The notes beneath the pieces are model-generated. The model did no database searches and was not told where the DNA came from. It was given only the letters and a program-made list of their open reading frames with translations. From assembly GCA_030059665.1 (NCBI GenBank), contig JANVYR010000002.1, positions 224,001 through 288,000 of the forward strand: a DNA stretch of 64,000 bases, written 5' to 3'. This document shows, one piece after another, positions 36,902 through 61,310 of the stretch; position 1 is the first letter of the stretch; every line of letters starts with the position of its first letter. Source of the stretch: Candidatus Calditenuis fumarioli (GTDB lineage: Archaea > Thermoproteota > Nitrososphaeria_A > Caldarchaeales > Calditenuaceae). Position numbers and translations under genes: made by a program.

Positions 36902-37999
36902 GTGAAGGTCGTCGCCTGCCTCGACCTGGACTACTTCTTCGCGCAGGCGGAGGAGCTCAGGAGACCTGAGATCAGGGGGAAGCCGGTGGTCGTATGCGTC
37001 TACTCGGGAAGAACGGAGGTCAGCGGTGCGGTCGCCTCCGCCAACTACCTAGCCAGGTCGTACGGCGTCAAGGCGGGCATGCCCATATCTCGGGCGATGA
37101 GGCTGCTGGAGGGGAAGGACGCGGTCTTCCTGCCGGTGGACAAGCGGTACTACTCGGAGCTCTCTGCGAGAGTCTTCGAGGTCGTCGGCCGCTTCGACGT
37201 AACGGTCGAGGTGGTGAGCGTGGACGAGGCCTTCATCGACCTGACCCGTGTCACCGGCGGCGACTTCGGGAGGGCCGGCGAGGTCGCGGCGTCGATCAAG
37301 AGGGAGGTGCTGCTCGAGACGGGGCTCAGGTGCACGGTCGGCGTCGGGCCCAACAAGGTGGTCGCGAAGATAGCGTGCGATCGCGCCAAGCCAGACGGTC
37401 TGCTCGTTGTGAGCCCGGAGCAGGTCAGGTCCTTCCTCAGCGATCTTCCGGTGGAGGAGATGCCCTACGTGGGCAGGAAGGTCGGCGAGAAGCTGAGGGA
37501 GATGGGGATCACCACAATAGGCCAGCTGGCGAGCGCGGACCCCCAGGTCCTCGTGGCCAGGTTCGGGGAGGCGATGGGAAGGTACCTCCACCTGGCGAGC
37601 AGGGGCGAGTACGACGAGCCAGTTGCTCCGAGGGAGGGGAGGACGCAGCTCAGCAGGATCGTGACGCTGAAGAGGGACACGTCCGACCCTGAGGAGATAC
37701 TCTCGCAGCTGGAGGGGCCCATGAGGGCGCTGCTCGATGAGGCGCGGAGGCAGGGTTACCTCTGCAGGGGCGTCGGGGTGATAGCGATCACGACCGACCT
37801 GAGGACCCTTACCAGGTCCAGAAAGCTGGGGAGCCCGGTGGAGGACCTGGAGGCGCTCAGGAGGAACGTCTCGGCGCTTCTGGAGGAGCTGCTGGGAGGC
37901 ACCGGCGGGATCAGGCTGAGGAGGGCGGGCGTGAAGCTCTTCGACCTTGAGAGGGCCTCGGGCCAGAGGACGCTGGGGGAGTTCCTCGGTAGCGGCTAA
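36902..37999 (+). CDS. dbh: Y-family DNA polymerase IV (Dpo4/Dbh)
   Basis: LDLDYFFAQ, ASANYLARSYGVKAGMP, SVDEAFID, PNKVVAKIACDRAKPDG. Confidence 0.96.
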   Translation: MKVVACLDLDYFFAQAEELRRPEIRGKPVVVCVYSGRTEVSGAVASANYLARSYGVKAGMPISRAMRLLEGKDAVFLPVDKRYYSELSARVFEVVGRFDVTVEVVSVDEAFIDLTRVTGGDFGRAGEVAASIKREVLLETGLRCTVGVGPNKVVAKIACDRAKPDGLLVVSPEQVRSFLSDLPVEEMPYVGRKVGEKLREMGITTIGQLASADPQVLVARFGEAMGRYLHLASRGEYDEPVAPREGRTQLSRIVTLKRDTSDPEEILSQLEGPMRALLDEARRQGYLCRGVGVIAITTDLRTLTRSRKLGSPVEDLEALRRNVSALLEELLGGTGGIRLRRAGVKLFDLERASGQRTLGEFLGSG

Positions 38000-38023
38000 A
38001 TCCACGACCTTCGAACGGCACAG

Positions 38024-38515
38024 GTGTCGGCCGAGGGATATCACGTCAGCCTTAGGAAGGTGCGGTTCTCCGACACCGACTGCACCGGCAGGGTCTTCTT
38101 CCCCAGGTACGTCGAGTGGATCGACGAGGCCGTGGACGACTACCTCGCCTCCCGAGGGTTCGTCTTCGACGAGAGGGGAGGCATGACCGTCAACGGATCC
38201 AGGGTCGACTGGACGCTCGTCACCGGCGAGTACTGGTGCAGGATGCTCAAGCCCCTGAGGCTGAACGACAGGCTCCTGATCAGGATCTGGGTCGAGCGGG
38301 TGGGCCGCAGCTCGCTCACCTTCGGAGGCGAGGTGCTGAGGGACGGCGAGGTGGTGGCGGTCGCGAGGATCACGTACGTCTCCGTCTCCACGTCTAGCCT
38401 GAGGTCCGTTCCGGTGCCGGAGGATCTGAGGAAGGTCCTCGCGGAGCTCGTCAGGGAAGGGAGCTCGCAGAGCGAAACAATATCACAAGCCAACCGGTCG
38501 GAAGGTCAGGAGTGA
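38024..38515 (+). CDS. Acyl-CoA thioesterase (4HBT family)
   Basis: VRFSDTDCTGRVFFPRY, VGRSSLTF. Confidence 0.92.
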   Translation: MSAEGYHVSLRKVRFSDTDCTGRVFFPRYVEWIDEAVDDYLASRGFVFDERGGMTVNGSRVDWTLVTGEYWCRMLKPLRLNDRLLIRIWVERVGRSSLTFGGEVLRDGEVVAVARITYVSVSTSSLRSVPVPEDLRKVLAELVREGSSQSETISQANRSEGQE

Positions 38516-39186
38516 GGCTGGTGGCGCTTTTCACGGGCGGAAAGGACTCGACGCTGGCGCTCGAGAGGGCGATCGAGGAGGGGCACTCGATAGCAGCGTG
38601 CCTGACAGTCGTTCCTGAGCCGAACTCCTGGGCCTTCCACGAGATCTGCCTCGACGTCACGCCGCTCCAGGCCGAGGCGATGGGAATACCACACCTCATG
38701 CTCAGGGTCGGTGGCGGGAAGGTCAGGGAGATCGAGGAGCTCGGGAGGCACCTCGCCGCGCTGAAGGATAAGCTCGGGGTGGGAGGGTTCGTGACAGGGA
38801 CCATCAGGAGCAGCTACCAGAAGACGAGGATGGACGAGCTGGCGGCGGAGCTGGGGATGAGGCACATGGCTCCCAACTGGGGTTCACCTCCGGGATCGGT
38901 GGTGCGGGAGGTGGTGAGGAGGGGATACGAGGTGCTCGTCTCCTCGGTGGCGGCCGCTGGGCTCGGGAGGGAGTGGATCGGGAGGAGGATCGACGCTCGG
39001 GCGCTGGAGGAGCTCCTGGACCTCTCGGAGCGATACGGGTTCGACCCCGACGGCGAGGGAGGGGACTACGAGACGCTCGTCCTCTGGGCCCCTCCCTTCA
39101 GGAGGAGGCTGAGGATCGACGAGTGGACCTCCACGTGGGACGGCTACTCGGGAAGGCTCGTGCTCGGGAGCTTCAGGCTCGAGTGA
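38512..39186 (+). CDS. dph6: Diphthine-ammonia ligase
   Basis: LFTGGKDS PP-loop, SSYQKTR, DPDGEGGDYETLV. Confidence 0.93.
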   Translation: MRLVALFTGGKDSTLALERAIEEGHSIAACLTVVPEPNSWAFHEICLDVTPLQAEAMGIPHLMLRVGGGKVREIEELGRHLAALKDKLGVGGFVTGTIRSSYQKTRMDELAAELGMRHMAPNWGSPPGSVVREVVRRGYEVLVSSVAAAGLGREWIGRRIDARALEELLDLSERYGFDPDGEGGDYETLVLWAPPFRRRLRIDEWTSTWDGYSGRLVLGSFRLE

Positions 39187-39238
39187 GTCCCGTGGGGCGA
39201 GGCGACACGCTCATAACCCGCTGGCGGGATGGAGGGCC

Positions 39239-39865
39239 GTGCCGGAGCCTGTAAGGGTGGTCGAGGGCAAGGCGGCGCCGCTGGAGGTGGACGACGTAGA
39301 CACCGACCAGATCATCCCGGCCGAGTTCCTGAAGGTGCTCGAGCGGAGGGGCCTCGGCAGGTACCTGTTCTACCGGTGGAGGTACGAGGGAGGGAAGCTC
39401 ACGGGGAACTTCGTGCTGGACAGGCCCGAGTTCTCCGGCGCGAGGATCCTCGTCGCTGGTCGGAACTTCGGCATCGGCTCGAGCAGGGAGAACGCCGTCT
39501 GGGCCCTACTCGACTTCGGAATCAGGTGCGTGATCGCCTCCTCCTTCGGCGACATCTTCTACGGCAACGCCTCGAAGAACGGGCTGGTCTGCGTCAGGCT
39601 CAGCGACGAGGAGGTCAGGGAGATCAGGGAGAGGGCCAAGTCGGGAGAACTGGTGTTGAGGGTTGACGTGGAGAGGGGCGTCGTGGAGGCTCCCTACGGG
39701 AAGACCTACAGGTTCGAGATGGAGCCGCACGTGAGGGAGAGGCTGGTTAAGGGGCTGGACGACATAGAGATCACGCTCTCCAAGTACGGCGATGCCATAC
39801 GGAGGTACGAGGAGAACATGCCGCGCTTCATGAGGCCGAGGCTGGAGGGCTTCACCGCCGACTGA
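39239..39865 (+). CDS. leuD: 3-isopropylmalate dehydratase small subunit
   Basis: DVDTDQIIPA, NFGIGSSRENAVWAL..FG, SFGDIFYGN, GLDDI. Confidence 0.95.
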   Translation: MPEPVRVVEGKAAPLEVDDVDTDQIIPAEFLKVLERRGLGRYLFYRWRYEGGKLTGNFVLDRPEFSGARILVAGRNFGIGSSRENAVWALLDFGIRCVIASSFGDIFYGNASKNGLVCVRLSDEEVREIRERAKSGELVLRVDVERGVVEAPYGKTYRFEMEPHVRERLVKGLDDIEITLSKYGDAIRRYEENMPRFMRPRLEGFTAD

Positions 39866-55513: not shown

Positions 55514-56284
55514 ATGAGGACCGGGAAGGGAGGTGCCCGCAGGGTCGAGATCGTCGGCCTGAGGCTTCCGATGGTGAGGGAAGGCGACGACCTGGCACAG
55601 CTGATCGTGAGGGCCGCAGAGGAGTCGGGCGCGGGGATCGAGGACGGCGACGTGATCGTCGTCTCTCAGGTGATCGTCTCCAAAGCGGAGGGCAGGGTGG
55701 TGCCGCTGGACGCGTTCGAACCCTCCGAGGCCGCACGGTCGCTCGCGGAGAGGACGGGGAAGGACCCGAGGCACGTGGAGGCTATACTGCGCGAGGCCGT
55801 TGAGGTCGTGAGGGTCAGGGGTGAGGTGATAATCACAGAGACGAGGCACGGCTTCGTCTGCGCCAACAGCGGCGTCGACCTCTCCAACGTCGGCGAGGGC
55901 ATGGTCTCCCTTCTTCCCGCAGAACCGGACCTCTCCGCAAGGAGGATACGCGAGGGTATCAGGAGGCTGACGGGTAAGGAGGTCGCTGTGGTGGTGGCCG
56001 ACAGCCACGGCAGGCCCTTCAGGAGGGGGGCCGTGAACGTGGCCATAGGGTCGTCCGGGATAGAGCCGCTGCTGGACTTGAGGGGGAGGCCGGACCTCTA
56101 CGGGAGGCCCCTCAGGAGCAAGCAGATCTGCGTGGTCGACGAGCTGGCGTCGGCCGCGGAGCTCGTGATGGGGAACGCCGACGAGGGGATCCCGGCAGCC
56201 ATCGTCAGGGGATACCCCTACAGGAGGTCGGAGGAGGGCGTGAGGGCCGTCATCAGACCCCGGGAGGAGGACCTCTTCCGGTGA
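55514..56284 (+). CDS. cofE: Coenzyme F420-0:L-glutamate ligase
   Basis: LPMVREGDDL, VSKAEGR, ANSGVDLSN, DSHGRPFRRG, DELASAAELVMG. Confidence 0.95.
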   Translation: MRTGKGGARRVEIVGLRLPMVREGDDLAQLIVRAAEESGAGIEDGDVIVVSQVIVSKAEGRVVPLDAFEPSEAARSLAERTGKDPRHVEAILREAVEVVRVRGEVIITETRHGFVCANSGVDLSNVGEGMVSLLPAEPDLSARRIREGIRRLTGKEVAVVVADSHGRPFRRGAVNVAIGSSGIEPLLDLRGRPDLYGRPLRSKQICVVDELASAAELVMGNADEGIPAAIVRGYPYRRSEEGVRAVIRPREEDLFR

Positions 56285-57084
56285 CGGGCTTGGCCTCCGT
56301 CGGGCCCCTCGTCAGGGCTCGGGTGCTGGGCGCGGTCATCAGGGCGCTGAGGGAGTCCCCGGAGCTCGACCCCTCGAGGATCTCGGAGCTCTCTGGCGTG
56401 GCGCGGGAGGTCGTTAGGGAGCTTCTGGAGGTCTGGAGCGGCGGGACTGGCCGGCTCGACCAGACGAGGGTCATAGAGCTGGCGGCGGAGGCGCTCGAGA
56501 GGTCAGGCGGATCTGTCGAGGTGCTGAGGGCCCTCGGATGGTCGCTCTTCGAGGACCTGATAGGAGCGCTGCTGGAGAGGATGGGGCTCGAAACGCTGAG
56601 GGACGTGAGGGTGAAGGTGGGGAGGAGGTGGTGCCAGATCGACGTGGTGGCGCTGAGGGGAGGCGACGTCTACGCACTGGAGTGCAAGCACTGGATGAGG
56701 AGCGTCACGTCCTCCCTGATGGCCTCGATAGCTTCCTCCCATCTGAGGCGCGTTGAGCTGCTCGAGGAGGGCCTCAGGTCGTCCCTCGGTGAGGGAGACG
56801 TGACCGTCCGGGTGGTTCCGGTGGCGGTGGCGCTGTACGTTCCACCCTCGACCGGCGAGGTCCTCTTCGTCCCGGTCCGCGCGCTGGCGAGCTTCCTCTC
56901 CGAGCACCCCGCAGCTCTCCCTTCTCCCCCCGTCAGGAGGTTGAAGTTAGGCAGGAGGCCCGACGCGTCCACCTTCACAAGGCCTCCGTTCAGGGCATCG
57001 AGGGAAGCGACAAGGCTCGACGCAGGGTTGACGAGGCTCGAGGACCACGCTGCTCAGCAGGGCCCGATGACCTCCAGGAGGTGA
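56281..57084 (+). CDS. Mrr-like PD-(D/E)XK endonuclease domain protein
   Basis: FEDLIGALLE..G, QIDVVA...ALECKHW. Confidence 0.75.
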   Translation: MTGLASVGPLVRARVLGAVIRALRESPELDPSRISELSGVAREVVRELLEVWSGGTGRLDQTRVIELAAEALERSGGSVEVLRALGWSLFEDLIGALLERMGLETLRDVRVKVGRRWCQIDVVALRGGDVYALECKHWMRSVTSSLMASIASSHLRRVELLEEGLRSSLGEGDVTVRVVPVAVALYVPPSTGEVLFVPVRALASFLSEHPAALPSPPVRRLKLGRRPDASTFTRPPFRASREATRLDAGLTRLEDHAAQQGPMTSRR

Positions 57085-57310
57085 CCGAGACCGATCGAGG
57101 GGATCCTCGACCTCCACGCCTCCCACTCGGCCTCGAAGTCGGGTGAGACCCTGGGCCTCCGGACGACGTCGTAGTAGTCGTACGGTTTGATGTCCAGCAC
57201 AGAAGAGCCGGGCCAGGCGTCGAGCCAGAGGACCTCCAGCCTCGGCGGCTCCACCCTCGACAGCTCCACCACGCTCACCGCGATGGGGTTCGGCCTGGGA
57301 GGGTGGCGCG
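57054..57310 (-). pseudogene. trmO: 5'-truncated TrmO/TsaA (tRNA m6t6A37 methyltransferase) fragment
   Basis: RPNPIAVSVVEL...LDAWPGSSVLDIKPY is the C-terminal half of the TsaA domain; similarity stops where the tRNA fragment begins on the opposite strand. Confidence 0.75.
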
Positions 57311-57324
57311 AAGTTGATAGGGAG

Positions 57325-57360
57325 AACCGGAGGTCCCGGGTTCGAGTCCCGGCGGGCCCG
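57325..57360 (+). tRNA. Isolated tRNA 3' half (positions 38-73; Lys/Arg-type acceptor)
   Basis: A-ACCGG-AGGTC-CCGGG-TTCGAGT-CCCGG-CGGGCCC-G is an intact anticodon 3' strand, variable loop, T arm, acceptor strand and G73; no 5' half found in the window. Confidence 0.85.
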
Positions 57361-57409
57361 CGAATATAATAGCTTTCCAATTATGAACGATGATTGGGCC
57401 GTAAGCATG

Positions 57410-57434
57410 AAAACAGAAAAGGAAAGAAAGGGGA
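57410..57434 (-). terminator. U-rich terminator-like tract after the LAGLIDADG ORF
   Basis: Minus strand TCCCCTTTCTTTCCTTTTCTGTTTT just after the stop codon. Confidence 0.5.
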
Positions 57435-57439
57435 GGGGT

Positions 57440-58456
57440 TTACGTCGTCAGCGAGTTATTAGGAAGAAGCCCTCTCCTCTTCAAGTATTCCTCGAGTCTC
57501 TTCCTCTTCCGCTCGATCGTGAAACCGACTTTCTCGTAGAACGTCAGATTTGACTTCATTCTCACGCTGACATAGTAGGCGTCTTTTCTCGCTCTATACA
57601 CTTTATCCGTCTTCTTCGGGTCTCTAAACGGTCTTCCTGCTCGGTGATGTAGTATCGGCTTCTCCGAAGTCGTCTCTATCCCGATCTTTTTCAGCAGATA
57701 TATCACGTACTCCAACATCTTATAGTTGGTGTTAACCACCCCAATTTCACCATCTTTATGAGCATATCCCTCACTGTCAAAGAACCCCCGAAGGAACATT
57801 GCTATACATCTCTCGCAGTGCTCAACGTACGGTCTGATCCTCTCGATGTCTATGGGTTTCTTGAGCAGCTCGTAGAGTGTTCTGGACTGAACTTCGACGA
57901 CCCATAAACTGTATTTATTTTGCCTTGGTATCGGAGGTTCCCTTCCCAGAACCTTAGCTAATCTCCTGCCAAATTCTTCGGCGAATTCCTTGTCCTTGAC
58001 CGTCAATCCGACAAAGAATTTGTCATATCTAGGCGCCGAAATACTCATCTTATAGACAGTACCGTCTCCAACTATTGCGCCAGCGATGTAAGCCAGATCT
58101 TCTGAAGGTTTCAGGAATTCTAATGTCGGTATTCTGATTCCGTTATAGGGAGAGTGTTTCCTATTTTTCCACCCGCTGAGAGTTGACTTGCGGATAGTAA
58201 CGTTATATCTTCTCTTTATCTCCTTGATTATTTTGTTATAGCTCAATCCCTGTTTCCGGAGTTCAAGGAAGTCCTCGTGGATCCTTATCCTCAGTTCTCC
58301 CGGAAGGATAGTTCTTCTGCGCTTCCGTTTCAACTGACTGTGTGCGGAGGCTTCCGCGCTCATGACATCACCCATGTGAATGGCAGAGGCAACGATTTCG
58401 GTTCCCTCAGCATGACGTCTATCCTTCTCAGCGTGTTCTCTATGGCCTTTTCTCAT
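57440..58456 (-). CDS. Free-standing HTH-LAGLIDADG homing endonuclease-like protein (338 aa)
   Basis: HTH (GLSYNKII..IRKSTLSGWK), LAGLIDADG motifs LAYIAGAIVGDG and FLRGFFDSEG; SD-like GGAGGGTGA before ATG 58456; AT-rich codons. Confidence 0.92.
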   Translation of the reverse strand: MRKGHREHAEKDRRHAEGTEIVASAIHMGDVMSAEASAHSQLKRKRRRTILPGELRIRIHEDFLELRKQGLSYNKIIKEIKRRYNVTIRKSTLSGWKNRKHSPYNGIRIPTLEFLKPSEDLAYIAGAIVGDGTVYKMSISAPRYDKFFVGLTVKDKEFAEEFGRRLAKVLGREPPIPRQNKYSLWVVEVQSRTLYELLKKPIDIERIRPYVEHCERCIAMFLRGFFDSEGYAHKDGEIGVVNTNYKMLEYVIYLLKKIGIETTSEKPILHHRAGRPFRDPKKTDKVYRARKDAYYVSVRMKSNLTFYEKVGFTIERKRKRLEEYLKRRGLLPNNSLTT

Positions 58457-58469
58457 ATCATCACCCTCC

Positions 58470-60121
58470 CCCTCTGGCTCTGAGAGACGGGCAGGACGAA
58501 GATCCTGCCCGACCCCTGCATCGGCTGAGTCAGGGCTTACGGCCGGGGCCAGCCGACCCCTTCTCCCGGGGTCCGGGCCGGGATCGGAGGGACCGATCAT
58601 ATCCCTCCCCATGATGTTGGGGAGGCCGGCCTTCTAGGCCGGGACATCCCTCCGACCGGCCCTCCCCGGGGAAGGGTTGCCACAGAGGGGGTGAGGCGCC
58701 GTCCGACGTCAGCCTGATCCGGTGAGGATGGTCAGCTGGTGATCGCGATGGGGGTGAGGGCTTCTCCGCGCCCGACACCCGACCCCTTCCTCACCCGGTG
58801 GCCATCCGGAAGAGGAAGGTACTGGGCGGACGCGCATCGATCCGGTCAGACTCGCCTATCCTCCTGAGCGCCGTCACCCGATGGGAGGGACCCCTGCACG
58901 CCGCGCCCTTCGCCCGGGTATGCCTGTCCCTCCTTTGGACCCGGAGGCCGGCCTTGCCCGGGGATCACCGGATGACGGCGTTCAGGAGGACTTCTGGGAT
59001 CATCGTGTAATCATCAGGTGATCGTCCGGTCCGGGACCTTTGCCGACCCCGTGTATACAAATGTGCACAAATGCATACATCCGTTCCTACCCCCTCTCCC
59101 CCTCCCTTTCGGGAAGAGGTGGGGGTCCTCAGAATGCCCCCTGGGGGTCTCAGAGCACCCCCCGGGGGGCCTCTCCCCTCCCTCCCCCTACCCCTGGTTG
59201 CCCCCTTTGGGACTAGGGCGGGGGATCGGTGAACCCCCAGTACCCCCTCCCTTCGACGGAGGATAGGGGATCCCTGAGGGCCATGAGGGGAGCCCCCTTC
59301 GCGCATGGTGGGGTCTCCTCGACGGGGTTCTCGGCGGTCCCGGTATCCGTGCCCAGAGTTCCCACGGCCCCCCGGACGGGGTTTTGAGACGGCCGTGGTA
59401 CCCCGGGCCATCTACCGGCGGACGGGCTTGGGAACCCTGAAGGGCCATCGCCCCGGGCTTGTCCCCTCATCGCCCGTTCCCCCCTCCATCCGGAGGGGGT
59501 TATGGCGGTTAGCCCTGCCCCCCGGACGGGAGGCGGTGCCCTCACAGCGGACGCTCAGGCCCTCACATCCCCTGCTGGAAGCGCGGGGGATGCGGGACAC
59601 CCGCCGCCGCCGTCTCTACGTCCGGGGCCAGAGGTGCTGGGAGGCCCCGGCGCACCAACCCCTCCCCCAGGATCCCCAGCACCCATGAGTTTGGTGGGTG
59701 CTCCGGGATTTGATCCCGGGGTGAGAGGAATAGTTCTCCCTCGACTCGGCTGACTTCCTCTTCCTCCGCCCTTCGTCTGTCTTCCGGGAGGGCTTAGGGC
59801 GATCGCCCTTCCCGGGGAGCCCCTTCTGCCCCTCCCATCCGGGACTCCCCCGCCGCCCCGGCATCCTGGGGCTACGGGCGGGCTCCCACTTCCCGCCGCT
59901 CCCTTCAGGGAGGCGAGGAGACGCTCTCGTCGTCCCCTCGCCGGGGGCAGCTCCCTTCACCGGAGGAGGTCCAGGGCCGCAACCCCTTTCGGGGCCTCGG
60001 CGCCGCCCCGCCGGCTTTCGTCGGCGGCCCCAACTCCTCCTCCAGCGCCGCCACCTTTCCGTGGCGACCGGGCCCCTCACGTGGCGGGCCTCGGGACCCG
60101 TGAGGAGGACCTTGAACCCTC
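58470..60121 (-). ncRNA. Putative ~1.65-kb highly structured non-coding RNA of unknown class
   Basis: Very GC-rich with only Pro/Gly/Arg junk ORFs; dense stem-loops whose GAAA tetraloops and G.U pairs work only on the minus strand; TATA-like box just upstream; boundaries approximate. Confidence 0.75.
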
Positions 60122-60143
60122 TGTAAAGTGTAGTTCTGTCGAC

Positions 60144-60153
60144 TTTACTTAAG
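60144..60153 (-). promoter_or_regulatory. TATA-like box for the putative large RNA
   Basis: CTTAAGTAAA on minus strand 23-32 nt upstream of the first hairpin (60121). Confidence 0.45.
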
Positions 60154-60176
60154 CATTAGCATTCAACTGGACGTGA

Positions 60177-60547
60177 TAGTGTCCGGATAAGCATCTCTAC
60201 CCACCTCCGTTCCTCATCACATGATAGTAGATCGCGAAGAGGTTTAGGAATTGGTCTCATCGACAGCTATGCACCTCCTATATCTCGGCTCTGAGGCCAC
60301 TGTTACCATAGAAGACACCTTCCTGGCAAGATAATGTACTGTTGATTCGCTTATAGGCTCAATAGCTATGCTGAGTACCTTGGCGACCCTCCTGCAGCTG
60401 CCGTGGAACACGTACTCTAGGACAGCTAAGACCTTGACCTCACGGCTTTTTTGTTGCGCTCGAGACGGCTCGAGATCAGGGCTATGACGTCCACGAAGAC
60501 GACCATCGAAGACAGGCCTTTAAATGTATTCACTTATCCGGACACTA
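60177..60547 (-). mobile_element. Internally deleted IS6-family element (371 bp)
   Basis: Perfect 15-bp terminal inverted repeats TAGTGTCCGGATAAG / CTTATCCGGACACTA; internal frame ...SCRRVAKVL..ISESTVHYLARK...CIAVDET* resembles the IS6 transposase N-terminus up to the first catalytic Asp. Confidence 0.85.
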
Positions 60548-61310
60548 CCGAGATAGTTTAGAAGGCATTGATATACAACCTGTTGCTTAACGCGGCATGA
60601 ACTTAGGAAACTGAGGCACGAGCTGGAGAAGAGGTAATAGAACTAGAGGAATTATGCCACAAGGCATGAGGCTGCAGAGGTTCGTCAAGGATTTCGCTCG
60701 ATCCTGCCGTTTGGGATGCGGCGGGCGCCCGGCTTTGATGGCCCCATGATGGATTGATTCCGAGGAGAATTGGAGACAATATTAACTCAGGCAGGAGAGT
60801 CCTACTACGACGACGTTTACCTCATGGCGAGCACGGACGAGGAGGGATGGGATGAGGGAAGTAAGGGCCCTTGAGGAGAGGGTTTCCGCAGTCACAGGGT
60901 CCACCGGGAATCGCCAGCCACACCCAAAGAGCAGGAAACGGTCGGGTCTAATGACAAATCTTAGAAGTGTTTACCGTGTGGGGAAGGACGAGGGACTTCA
61001 GGACGTGGAAGGCGCAGATGATGGCTTATCTCGTCCGTCAACCGCCCTCAAAGGAGCTGGACTCCCTGATAGACCAGCTTGAGAAGCTCCGTAGCAGGTG
61101 GTTATCGAGTCTTTAGCCGGCATCAGCAAGCATGAGAGCGCATCAGGCATTAAGATTCCACCAGAATTGTTACCATCGCAAGAGTAGGTCGAGGCGTGGT
61201 CTCGGGAGAGGGAGTGAGGGATGTCGTATTAGCAGTTTATTAGGAGCTATGGCGTCGAGGTTTTCAGAATAAACAAGATCAATATCCCGCGCTGAACCCT
61301 ATCCGGCGGC

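Follow-up and report, generated by a model that had tools for sequence, protein, structure and literature searches.

Genes for LAGLIDADG homing endonucleases have been found in several settings that bear on the locus described here. Some are carried by bulge-helix-bulge (BHB) introns, such as those of rRNA (I-DmoI), while seg and mob of phage T4 are free-standing homing-endonuclease genes that spread by intronless homing. Structured RNAs accompany mobile genes in other systems: insertion sequences of the IS110 and IS1111 kind (IS621, ISCro4) carry a bridge (seek) RNA of ~180 nt, HEARO/OMEGA elements (IscB, TnpB with omega RNA) pair a structured RNA with an endonuclease open reading frame (ORF), and the large RNAs GOLLD and ROOL, to which OLE may be added for comparison, are often located near tRNA genes. 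To our knowledge, large structured RNAs other than rRNA, RNase P and signal recognition particle RNA are very rare in archaea. Here we analysed a locus of Candidatus Calditenuis fumarioli, a member of the Caldarchaeales ('Aigarchaeota') whose proteins have Caldarchaeum and Calditenuaceae as named relatives, that lies in a stretch of 64,000 nt (hereafter the window; contig JANVYR010000002.1, positions 224,001 to 288,000, all further coordinates being those of the window unless another contig is named). On its minus strand, a large structured RNA runs into the gene of a LAGLIDADG endonuclease with a helix-turn-helix (HTH) domain. With moderate confidence, we regard the two as a mobile cassette of a leader RNA and a homing-endonuclease gene that would be derived from the scaffold of an IS110-like element.

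The locus resembles each of these systems in part. With the BHB introns that bear LAGLIDADG genes it shares an I-DmoI-related two-motif enzyme and a structured RNA that is cut at a canonical BHB motif; however, the ORF is situated outside the intron, in the downstream exon, the intron itself holds no ORF, and its host is an element-borne RNA of 1.3-1.6 kb instead of an rRNA, a tRNA or a known mRNA. As in the case of free-standing homing endonucleases, the gene lies outside any intron or intein, in a low-GC island that is absent from sister genomes, and its flanks were apparently carried along, whereas the free-standing genes are not known to have a large conserved structured RNA linked to them. 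The position of a structured RNA directly 5' of the element's gene is that of IS110 and IS1111 elements, and two RNA modules (A and B), as well as the leader of a paralogous LAGLIDADG gene, are common to elements that encode a protein of the IS621 fold. In contrast to those elements, the cassette has no recombinase gene (no DEDD/RuvC-like plus Tnp ORF is present in the island) and carries a LAGLIDADG nuclease instead; its RNA is ~8 times longer than a bridge RNA, and its possible likeness to bridge-RNA regions lies in the shared modules and leader. HEARO/OMEGA elements, GOLLD, ROOL and OLE also place a large structured RNA by a nuclease gene in mobile DNA, but the host here is an archaeon, the gene is of the LAGLIDADG kind, and no Rfam match was obtained at E <= 10. 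An earlier note on this DNA had cited HEARO/OMEGA elements as a parallel; membership in that type was not borne out: neither HEARO nor any other Rfam family matched, the gene is not IscB, IsrB or TnpB, and nothing suggests guidance by the RNA. No RNA-endonuclease unit of this sort is described in the accessible parts of the literature on LAGLIDADG and Caldarchaeum or on large structured RNA and archaea, and a mobile cassette that combines an intron-containing non-coding RNA with a homing-endonuclease gene, and whose RNA has parts in common with RNA-guided jumping genes, has to that extent not been described before.

The endonuclease ORF encodes 338 aa (57440..58456, minus strand, ATG 58456-58454, stop 57440) and matches the Pfam family LAGLIDADG_3 (PF14528) with an E of 1.1e-17. 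The defining motifs and catalytic acidic residues of the monomeric two-motif class are present: motif 1 (LAYIAGAIVGDG, GDG) and motif 2 (FLRGFFDSEG, SEG) keep the acidic D/E in alignments to I-DmoI, PI-PfuI and I-MsoI, and the enzyme is, on these retained residues, active-looking. The ~110 N-terminal residues resemble an HTH domain. The GC content of the ORF is 41-47%, compared with 62% for the genome.

The stretch upstream of the gene is of a different kind. From ~60120 to 58460 on the minus strand, where it runs into the LAGLIDADG ORF, the DNA is GC-rich (62-75% over 58480-60100 vs 62% genome-wide), strongly folded and without a sensible ORF, and this 1.68-kb stretch is single-copy in the present genome. 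Exon 1 of the RNA (59330..60120, minus strand, 5' end unmapped) contains a conserved 5' domain at ~59463-60060. Compared with shuffled sequences, nt 58440-59100 are more folded (z = -5.7), as are the sub-regions of the module A hairpin (z = -5.8) and of 58480-58700 (z = -6.0); the mean z of 150-nt segments of the minus strand was -1.6, while that of two coding controls was ~0. The ORF strand folds better than its complement (-422.8 vs -388.2 kcal/mol for exon 1 and the 5' domain). Rfam searches of the whole window at the gathering score and of 56900-61300 at E <= 10 returned only weak matches at chance level and true tRNAs. A hidden protein gene in the GC-rich stretch was ruled out, given that codon periodicity was absent (p 0.58 and 0.47) and indels did not come in threes. 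TIGR-like and other tandem arrays were likewise ruled out, the sole tandem being a 21-nt unit inside the intron.

Direct reading confirmed several signals that the earlier note had listed. The RNA ends in a perfect hairpin (58490-58511, GGGCAGGATCTTCGTCCTGCCC), followed by a Shine-Dalgarno-like site (58461-58470, GGAGGGTGAT; the two together span 58461..58511 on the minus strand) and by the ATG of an intact ORF with both LAGLIDADG motifs. After the stop codon lies the U-rich tract of the note (CCCCTCCCCTTTCTTTCCTTTTCTGTTTTC, ~57405-57438), in a conserved 3' untranslated region (UTR) and candidate terminator (57404..57439, minus strand). The absence of a host gene around the ORF also holds true, its setting being corrected to a mosaic inserted island. 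The claim of a sole promoter 5' of the RNA stood in part. A scan of 58440-60200 for TATA-like patches (at least 7 of 8 A/T) yielded two: a candidate promoter 5' of the RNA (TTAAGTAAA, 60144..60152, minus strand) and a second patch at 59054-59062, which is located inside the intron. From 59054 to the ATG, and hence between exon 2 of the RNA and the ORF, no TATA-like patch was seen, nor any AT-rich patch in the 850 nt before the ORF in the related metagenome locus L050, and strong TATA-like boxes are found just 5' of the RNA in two further loci, L055 and L056. The T-rich 3' UTR is 97-100% identical over 37-38 nt in L049 and L051, where homology ends together with it, and is also conserved in L050. 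The absence of TATA-like patches before the ORF, the boxes 5' of the RNA and the conserved 3' UTR fit a single transcription unit, in which one promoter would drive a long leader and the ORF as far as one terminator.

The RNA is a real transcript from which a BHB intron of 290 nt (59040..59329, minus strand) is removed. Evidence of expression came from assembled contigs of RNA libraries (the contig depths of runs X18, X19 and X20 cannot rank expression). In metatranscriptome run X18, record 14 (158 nt, 0 mismatches, 77 and 81 flanking nt) joins 59329 to 59038 and skips 290 nt, a segment that is retained in DNA contigs (record 4 of run X1 and locus L047). When 57300-60250 was scanned for BHB motifs, the top candidate had exactly the borders of this junction. 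The motif, CCGGGACC-GCCG-AGA-ACCCCGT ... ACGGGGT-CGGC-AAA-GGTCCCGG, consists of an outer helix of 8 bp (CCGGGACC/GGTCCCGG), a 4-bp central helix (GCCG/CGGC), 3-nt bulges AGA and AAA, and an inner helix of 7 bp. Only when the ORF strand is read are the bulges 3' of the central helix on both strands, which we take to be the canonical geometry of tRNA introns, and the intron is most likely removed by the host tRNA-splicing endonuclease and ligase. The RNA that hosts the intron is non-coding and unclassified, matches no Rfam family and is neither a tRNA nor an rRNA nor a known mRNA; the known hosts of BHB introns would in this way be extended to an element-borne non-coding RNA. Loci L055 and L056 are without the intron segment. 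The ORF-less intron comprises the 21-nt unit mentioned above, repeated 2.5 times (59120-59173), and an AT-rich palindromic patch (59054-59095). A search for a giant BHB motif enclosing both the RNA and the ORF produced low-complexity candidates only, which were rejected.

The RNA and the gene are inherited together. A relative of the LAGLIDADG protein is encoded by 31 metagenome loci, and in five of them, representing three distinct versions, the RNA lies upstream in the same order and orientation. L047 and L048 are identical to the window (ORF 100%). In L050 the protein is 68% identical and the RNA 86% identical over 560 nt, and in the near-identical pair L055 and L056 the protein is 45% identical, the 5' domain of the RNA 71-73% over 560-600 nt, and module A 84%, with an ORF-free GC-rich stretch that again measures ~1.6 kb. 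The RNA is therefore better conserved than the protein. Its structure is conserved as well: of the 98 pairs that RNAalifold predicted for the 5' domain, 9 show compensatory changes, in an alignment of three sequences only. A covariance model of this domain (R1, 198 positions) matched 1 of the 76 genomes of the class, its own, and among 49 loci the full-length matches were confined to L055 and L056. Similarity between the latter two starts exactly at the conserved RNA start, the 5' flanks being different. The constancy of order and orientation at protein identities of 68% and 45% upholds the single inherited unit proposed in the earlier note. The same RNA precedes homologues in the three versions, and is lacking at 20 loci treated below; these loci, a paralogue without the RNA and the occurrence of modules A and B before other genes mean that the RNA and the ORF do partly occur independently, which the note had named as grounds for giving up the unit. 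An RNA that surpasses its protein in conservation, has an intron removed by the machinery of tRNA splicing and moves together with a homing endonuclease would be of a rare kind.

In other genomes (41 searched), the RNA is represented by two short pieces only. Module A (58850..58998, minus strand) has a core of ~78 nt (58887-58964) on a stem of ~25 bp (58859-58883 with 58966-58990). The core is 84-88% identical in L050, L055, L056 and the genomes G015 and G016; the flanking stems differ in sequence but still pair. Among the other 75 genomes of the class, two have the module, and in G015 it is located 720 nt upstream of an IS110-like gene, within a GC-rich ORF-free leader of 1.4 kb. Module B (58575..58650, minus strand) is a branched, cloverleaf-like element; pieces of 40-80 nt with 76-85% identity to it occur in G027, G036 and G024, which all belong to another family. 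In G027 (locus L008, the sole copy checked for ORFs) an IS110-like ORF follows it at a distance of ~180 nt. Situated between leader and mRNA, module B might serve as a tRNA-like processing signal.

Sequence variation was also seen around module A. In a DNA contig of run X1, a further 20 nt stand after 58996, and RNA contigs of runs X18 and X19 leave the sequence of the window at 59004-59018 and continue as upstream sequence of the L050 type. The variants at 58996 and 59004-59018 are population variants, and the switch to L050-type sequence places a recombination point just 5' of module A. As for module B, ARAGORN calls a tRNA-Ser at 58574-58662, and does so in L047, L048 and L050 too, with a different anticodon in L050. 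A true tRNA-Ser was rejected on account of the poor cloverleaf and the lack of a match to the tRNA model of Rfam.

The IS110-like genes encode an unannotated protein family of 250-360 aa. Six copies reside in the present genome, G000 (L011-L016: C1:324940-325806, C1:756912-757691, C1:627176-627949, C2:492168-492923, C1:678478-679401 and C2:72567-73814), none of them in the island. The family has no Pfam match and is 'hypothetical' in all databases. However, an AlphaFold2 model (predicted local distance difference test score 91.7) had ISCro4, IS621 and TIGR-TasR as its 10 best PDB matches, with probability 1.00 and TM 0.58-0.62 over ~310 aligned columns, that is, over the full length. IS621, ISCro4 and TIGR-TasR are RNA-guided recombinases or nucleases of the IS110 kind, and the K-S/T-D-x-x-D-A motif of the family resembles one of IS110. 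In members of the L011/L003 type the leaders are GC-rich, contain no ORF and measure 1.1-1.4 kb, well beyond the length of known bridge RNAs. On its modelled fold, the family may be a missed archaeal IS110-like lineage. The open question of archaeal IS110 lineages is raised in bioRxiv 10.1101/2024.06.21.599552; the accessible literature on bridge RNA or IS110 and archaea mentions neither the lineage nor LAGLIDADG, though supplementary tables might still list the protein family. A Caldarchaeales family of the IS110/IS621 fold with kilobase-long structured leaders would bear on archaeal IS110 lineages and on the search for programmable recombinases.

Two copies have tRNA genes as their insertion sites, tRNA-Lys(UUU) (C2:491720-493447) and tRNA-Asn(GUU) (C1:626773-628148), each being interrupted in its 5' part with a duplication of ~30 nt of the tRNA. 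The giant introns that ARAGORN -i reports in tRNA-Asn and tRNA-Lys were rejected as such, being these insertions with their duplicated tRNA 5' part. A non-coding segment of ~130 nt after the ORF is conserved between the two insertions, and the real tRNA-Lys and tRNA-Asn carry a short intron at a non-canonical place that ARAGORN cannot model.

Links between LAGLIDADG genes and IS110-like elements extend beyond the window. The paralogue L010, whose protein is 57% identical, directly follows a leader of 300 nt with 70-75% identity to those of the IS110-like copies L012 and L014, the homology ending ~25-50 nt before the ORFs start; nothing in its upstream spacer of ~480 nt resembles the RNA. Another lineage of LAGLIDADG genes, that of L057 and its kin, has a 5' piece of 120 nt in common with the G016 element. 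From the leader of L010 and the sharing of modules A and B, the LAGLIDADG gene seems to sit in the slot of a recombinase gene, and LAGLIDADG genes thus appear to occupy repeatedly the place behind leaders that otherwise serve IS110-like or other selfish genes. A LAGLIDADG gene that swaps places with RNA-guided recombinase genes on a shared scaffold would be a concrete case of selfish genes exchanging engines. The copy L010 itself (G000, C2:56280-58280) lies in a low-GC island of ~2 kb between a 5-formyltetrahydrofolate cyclo-ligase-like gene and a HisA-like gene, and its 600-nt 3' part is unique in the genome.

The RNA and the gene are part of an inserted island of 4.0 kb (57305..61307). In two genomes of the same genus, G005 (L032) and G002 (L033), homology to the window breaks off after 57304 and is taken up again at 61308 or 61311, and the flanking genes, TrmO and a nitroreductase, are 342 bp apart. 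The island has replaced these 342 bp, which in the sister species comprise the N-terminus of TrmO and a spacer. The alignment thus indicates that the island removed the N-terminal part of the protein; the TrmO ORF of the window matches only positions 65-111 of the Pfam profile TrmO_N. Comparison of occupied and empty sites is in line with the selfish unit suggested in the earlier note, the island being absent from both sister genomes, and such presence and absence is compatible with mobility. The island is a mosaic. At 57311..57361 (plus strand), convergent with the ORF, it contains the 3' half, left as an orphan, of a tRNA-Arg gene; four tRNA-Arg genes of the genome match it at 94-100% identity in their own 3' halves. 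Beyond the RNA there are a 371-bp element resembling a miniature inverted-repeat transposable element (MITE; 60177..60547) with perfect terminal inverted repeats of 15 bp, and a patchwork (60550..61240) of pieces that, according to blastn, are repeated beside IS110-like genes elsewhere in the genome, with 73-93% identity to the flanks of L011, L015 and a further copy at C1:606061-607251. Next to most LAGLIDADG copies there is a convergent tRNA gene, whose 3' end is 40-110 nt away. Whole convergent tRNA genes occupy the equivalent place in L049, L050, L055/L056 and L057/L063/L064; the copy in the window retains half of such a gene only.

From these results, a working model of the element may be proposed. 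In the order of the minus strand, it would consist of a TATA-like box, a GC-rich structured non-coding RNA of ~1.65 kb, a Shine-Dalgarno-like site, the HTH-LAGLIDADG ORF, a U-rich terminator and, normally, a convergent tRNA gene, and would constitute a strain-specific mobile cassette of a Caldarchaeales archaeon. The whole unit would be transcribed from the promoter 5' of the RNA, and the RNA would be processed by host enzymes. The endonuclease presumably cuts copies that are free of the cassette or bear the recombinase, and repair would copy the gene together with the adjoining leader. Such homing with co-conversion would explain both the long co-inheritance and the swapping of modules. The RNA would then be an inherited platform of expression and processing, perhaps one that IS110-like recombinases still use as a substrate in trans, and no guide for the LAGLIDADG protein, an enzyme family that recognises DNA by protein contacts.

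Several observations weigh against this model. In twenty metagenome loci, at least 500 nt of upstream sequence are visible and nothing there resembles the RNA; L010, loci of the Caldarchaeum type (L017/L052/L053), L057/L058/L063/L064 and others are without it, and it is also absent upstream of the homologues of Caldarchaeum subterraneum and other archaea. In a tree of 27 homologues (duplicates and short fragments were left out, and five rows had stops written as X), the RNA-bearing rows fall at two separate places in a well-supported Caldarchaeales clade of 12 rows, so that repeated loss or recombination and reshuffling of the link between RNA and ORF is needed. Module A keeps mixed company: in G016 it is followed by a 197-aa ORF, which was tried and rejected as an IS110-like protein (hhalign probability 4% to the family, and no copy in the present genome). 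The 3' flanks of either LAGLIDADG gene have no homology to the 3' parts of IS110-like elements. By sequence, the IS110-like assignment is weak, with one NCBIfam match (E 0.087) in 1 of 9 members, and the rest is predicted fold. Among the RNA-library contigs, none bridges 58437-58821 and none covers 58470-58616, and a co-transcript of RNA and ORF was not seen. Splicing is represented by a single assembled contig of one RNA library, in which DNA of an intron-less allele is possible. Finally, the total helix length of the BHB motif, 15, equals the best of 30 shuffles and the motif alone is not significant; the call consequently rests on its coincidence with the independent junction.

Many of the same facts can be read as a mere neighbourhood, in which the GC-rich stretch is the decaying non-coding end of one or two dead IS110-like elements and the LAGLIDADG gene landed beside it with no functional or transcriptional link between the two. 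The mosaic of orphan tRNA half, MITE and scraps of IS110 elements is what such a history would leave; many LAGLIDADG homologues are without the RNA, modules A and B occur with other genes, and the 5' domain is absent from the 75 other genomes of the class. Nevertheless, the arrangement persists down to a protein identity of 45%, with an RNA that is 71-73% identical and shows compensatory changes, the RNA is transcribed and spliced, and in three versions the ORF has no TATA-like patch before it. We consider chance neighbours unlikely, though deserving of serious attention.

The bolder possibility is that the RNA stands for a class of its own among the large functional RNAs of archaea. It would be related to bridge RNA but of giant size and with an intron, and would still direct DNA recombination by IS110-like recombinases in trans, with the LAGLIDADG nuclease recruited as a second engine of mobility. 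We hold this to be distinctly unlikely; if true, such a two-engine element of RNA and nuclease would be without precedent.

Alternatively, the protein could be a partner of the RNA, the HTH-LAGLIDADG protein binding it as a maturase or chaperone or forming a ribonucleoprotein in which the RNA chooses or tethers the DNA target. Some LAGLIDADG proteins do act as intron maturases, and the long co-inheritance as well as the extra N-terminal HTH domain, to which no role has been assigned, would be accounted for. Yet the catalytic residues are intact as in DNA endonucleases, close homologues do without the RNA, and the intron is of the BHB type, which is spliced by proteins and needs no maturase. 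A partnership of this sort therefore seems to us doubtful indeed.

A divergent self-splicing or catalytic RNA, for instance a degenerate group I-like intron without a host gene and with the LAGLIDADG ORF as its passenger, must also be weighed, since LAGLIDADG genes typically reside in introns. According to the accessible part of PMC6125680, group I introns with LAGLIDADG ORFs occur in archaeal rRNA genes, with one candidate for an aigarchaeote, and its authors find such introns hard to detect by sequence. In the window and in L055, however, no group I, group II or ribozyme model of Rfam matched at E <= 10, and L055, too, gave nothing but weak matches at chance level and true tRNAs. Furthermore, the 5' flanks differ among the window, L055 and L056 and are promoter-like instead of exon-like, only 37 conserved nt follow the ORF, and the 1.3-1.6 kb of RNA 5' of it by far exceed a group I core. 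We hold a catalytic intron to be very improbable. A housekeeping function in the host, as a large non-coding RNA whose gene adjoins an unrelated endonuclease gene, might be argued from the strong structure and the metatranscriptome expression but is scarcely credible, because two same-genus genomes have no such RNA at the empty site and R1 matches none of the 75 other genomes of the class.

Apart from the cassette proper, the following was observed. The tRNA genes beside the LAGLIDADG genes of the clade (L049, L050, L055/L056, L057/L063/L064 and L052) differ in identity, and loci of the Caldarchaeum type have a tRNA-Gly gene upstream of the LAGLIDADG gene and in the same orientation. The four other ARAGORN -i calls that were examined, including one in the window (37843-39329), were taken as spurious, as their 'introns' look coding and the cloverleaf stems are mismatched. 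The MITE-like element holds a remnant of a 55-aa ORF, which to our eye resembles a transposase fragment and matches no Pfam transposase family. The disrupted TrmO (tsaA-like) tRNA methyltransferase gene at 57054-57304 has lost its first ~64 codons to the insertion, and no second TrmO copy was seen in the genome with this query. An ORF with a restriction-endonuclease-like domain of the Mrr_cat/NERD type (56281-57084) directly adjoins the island.

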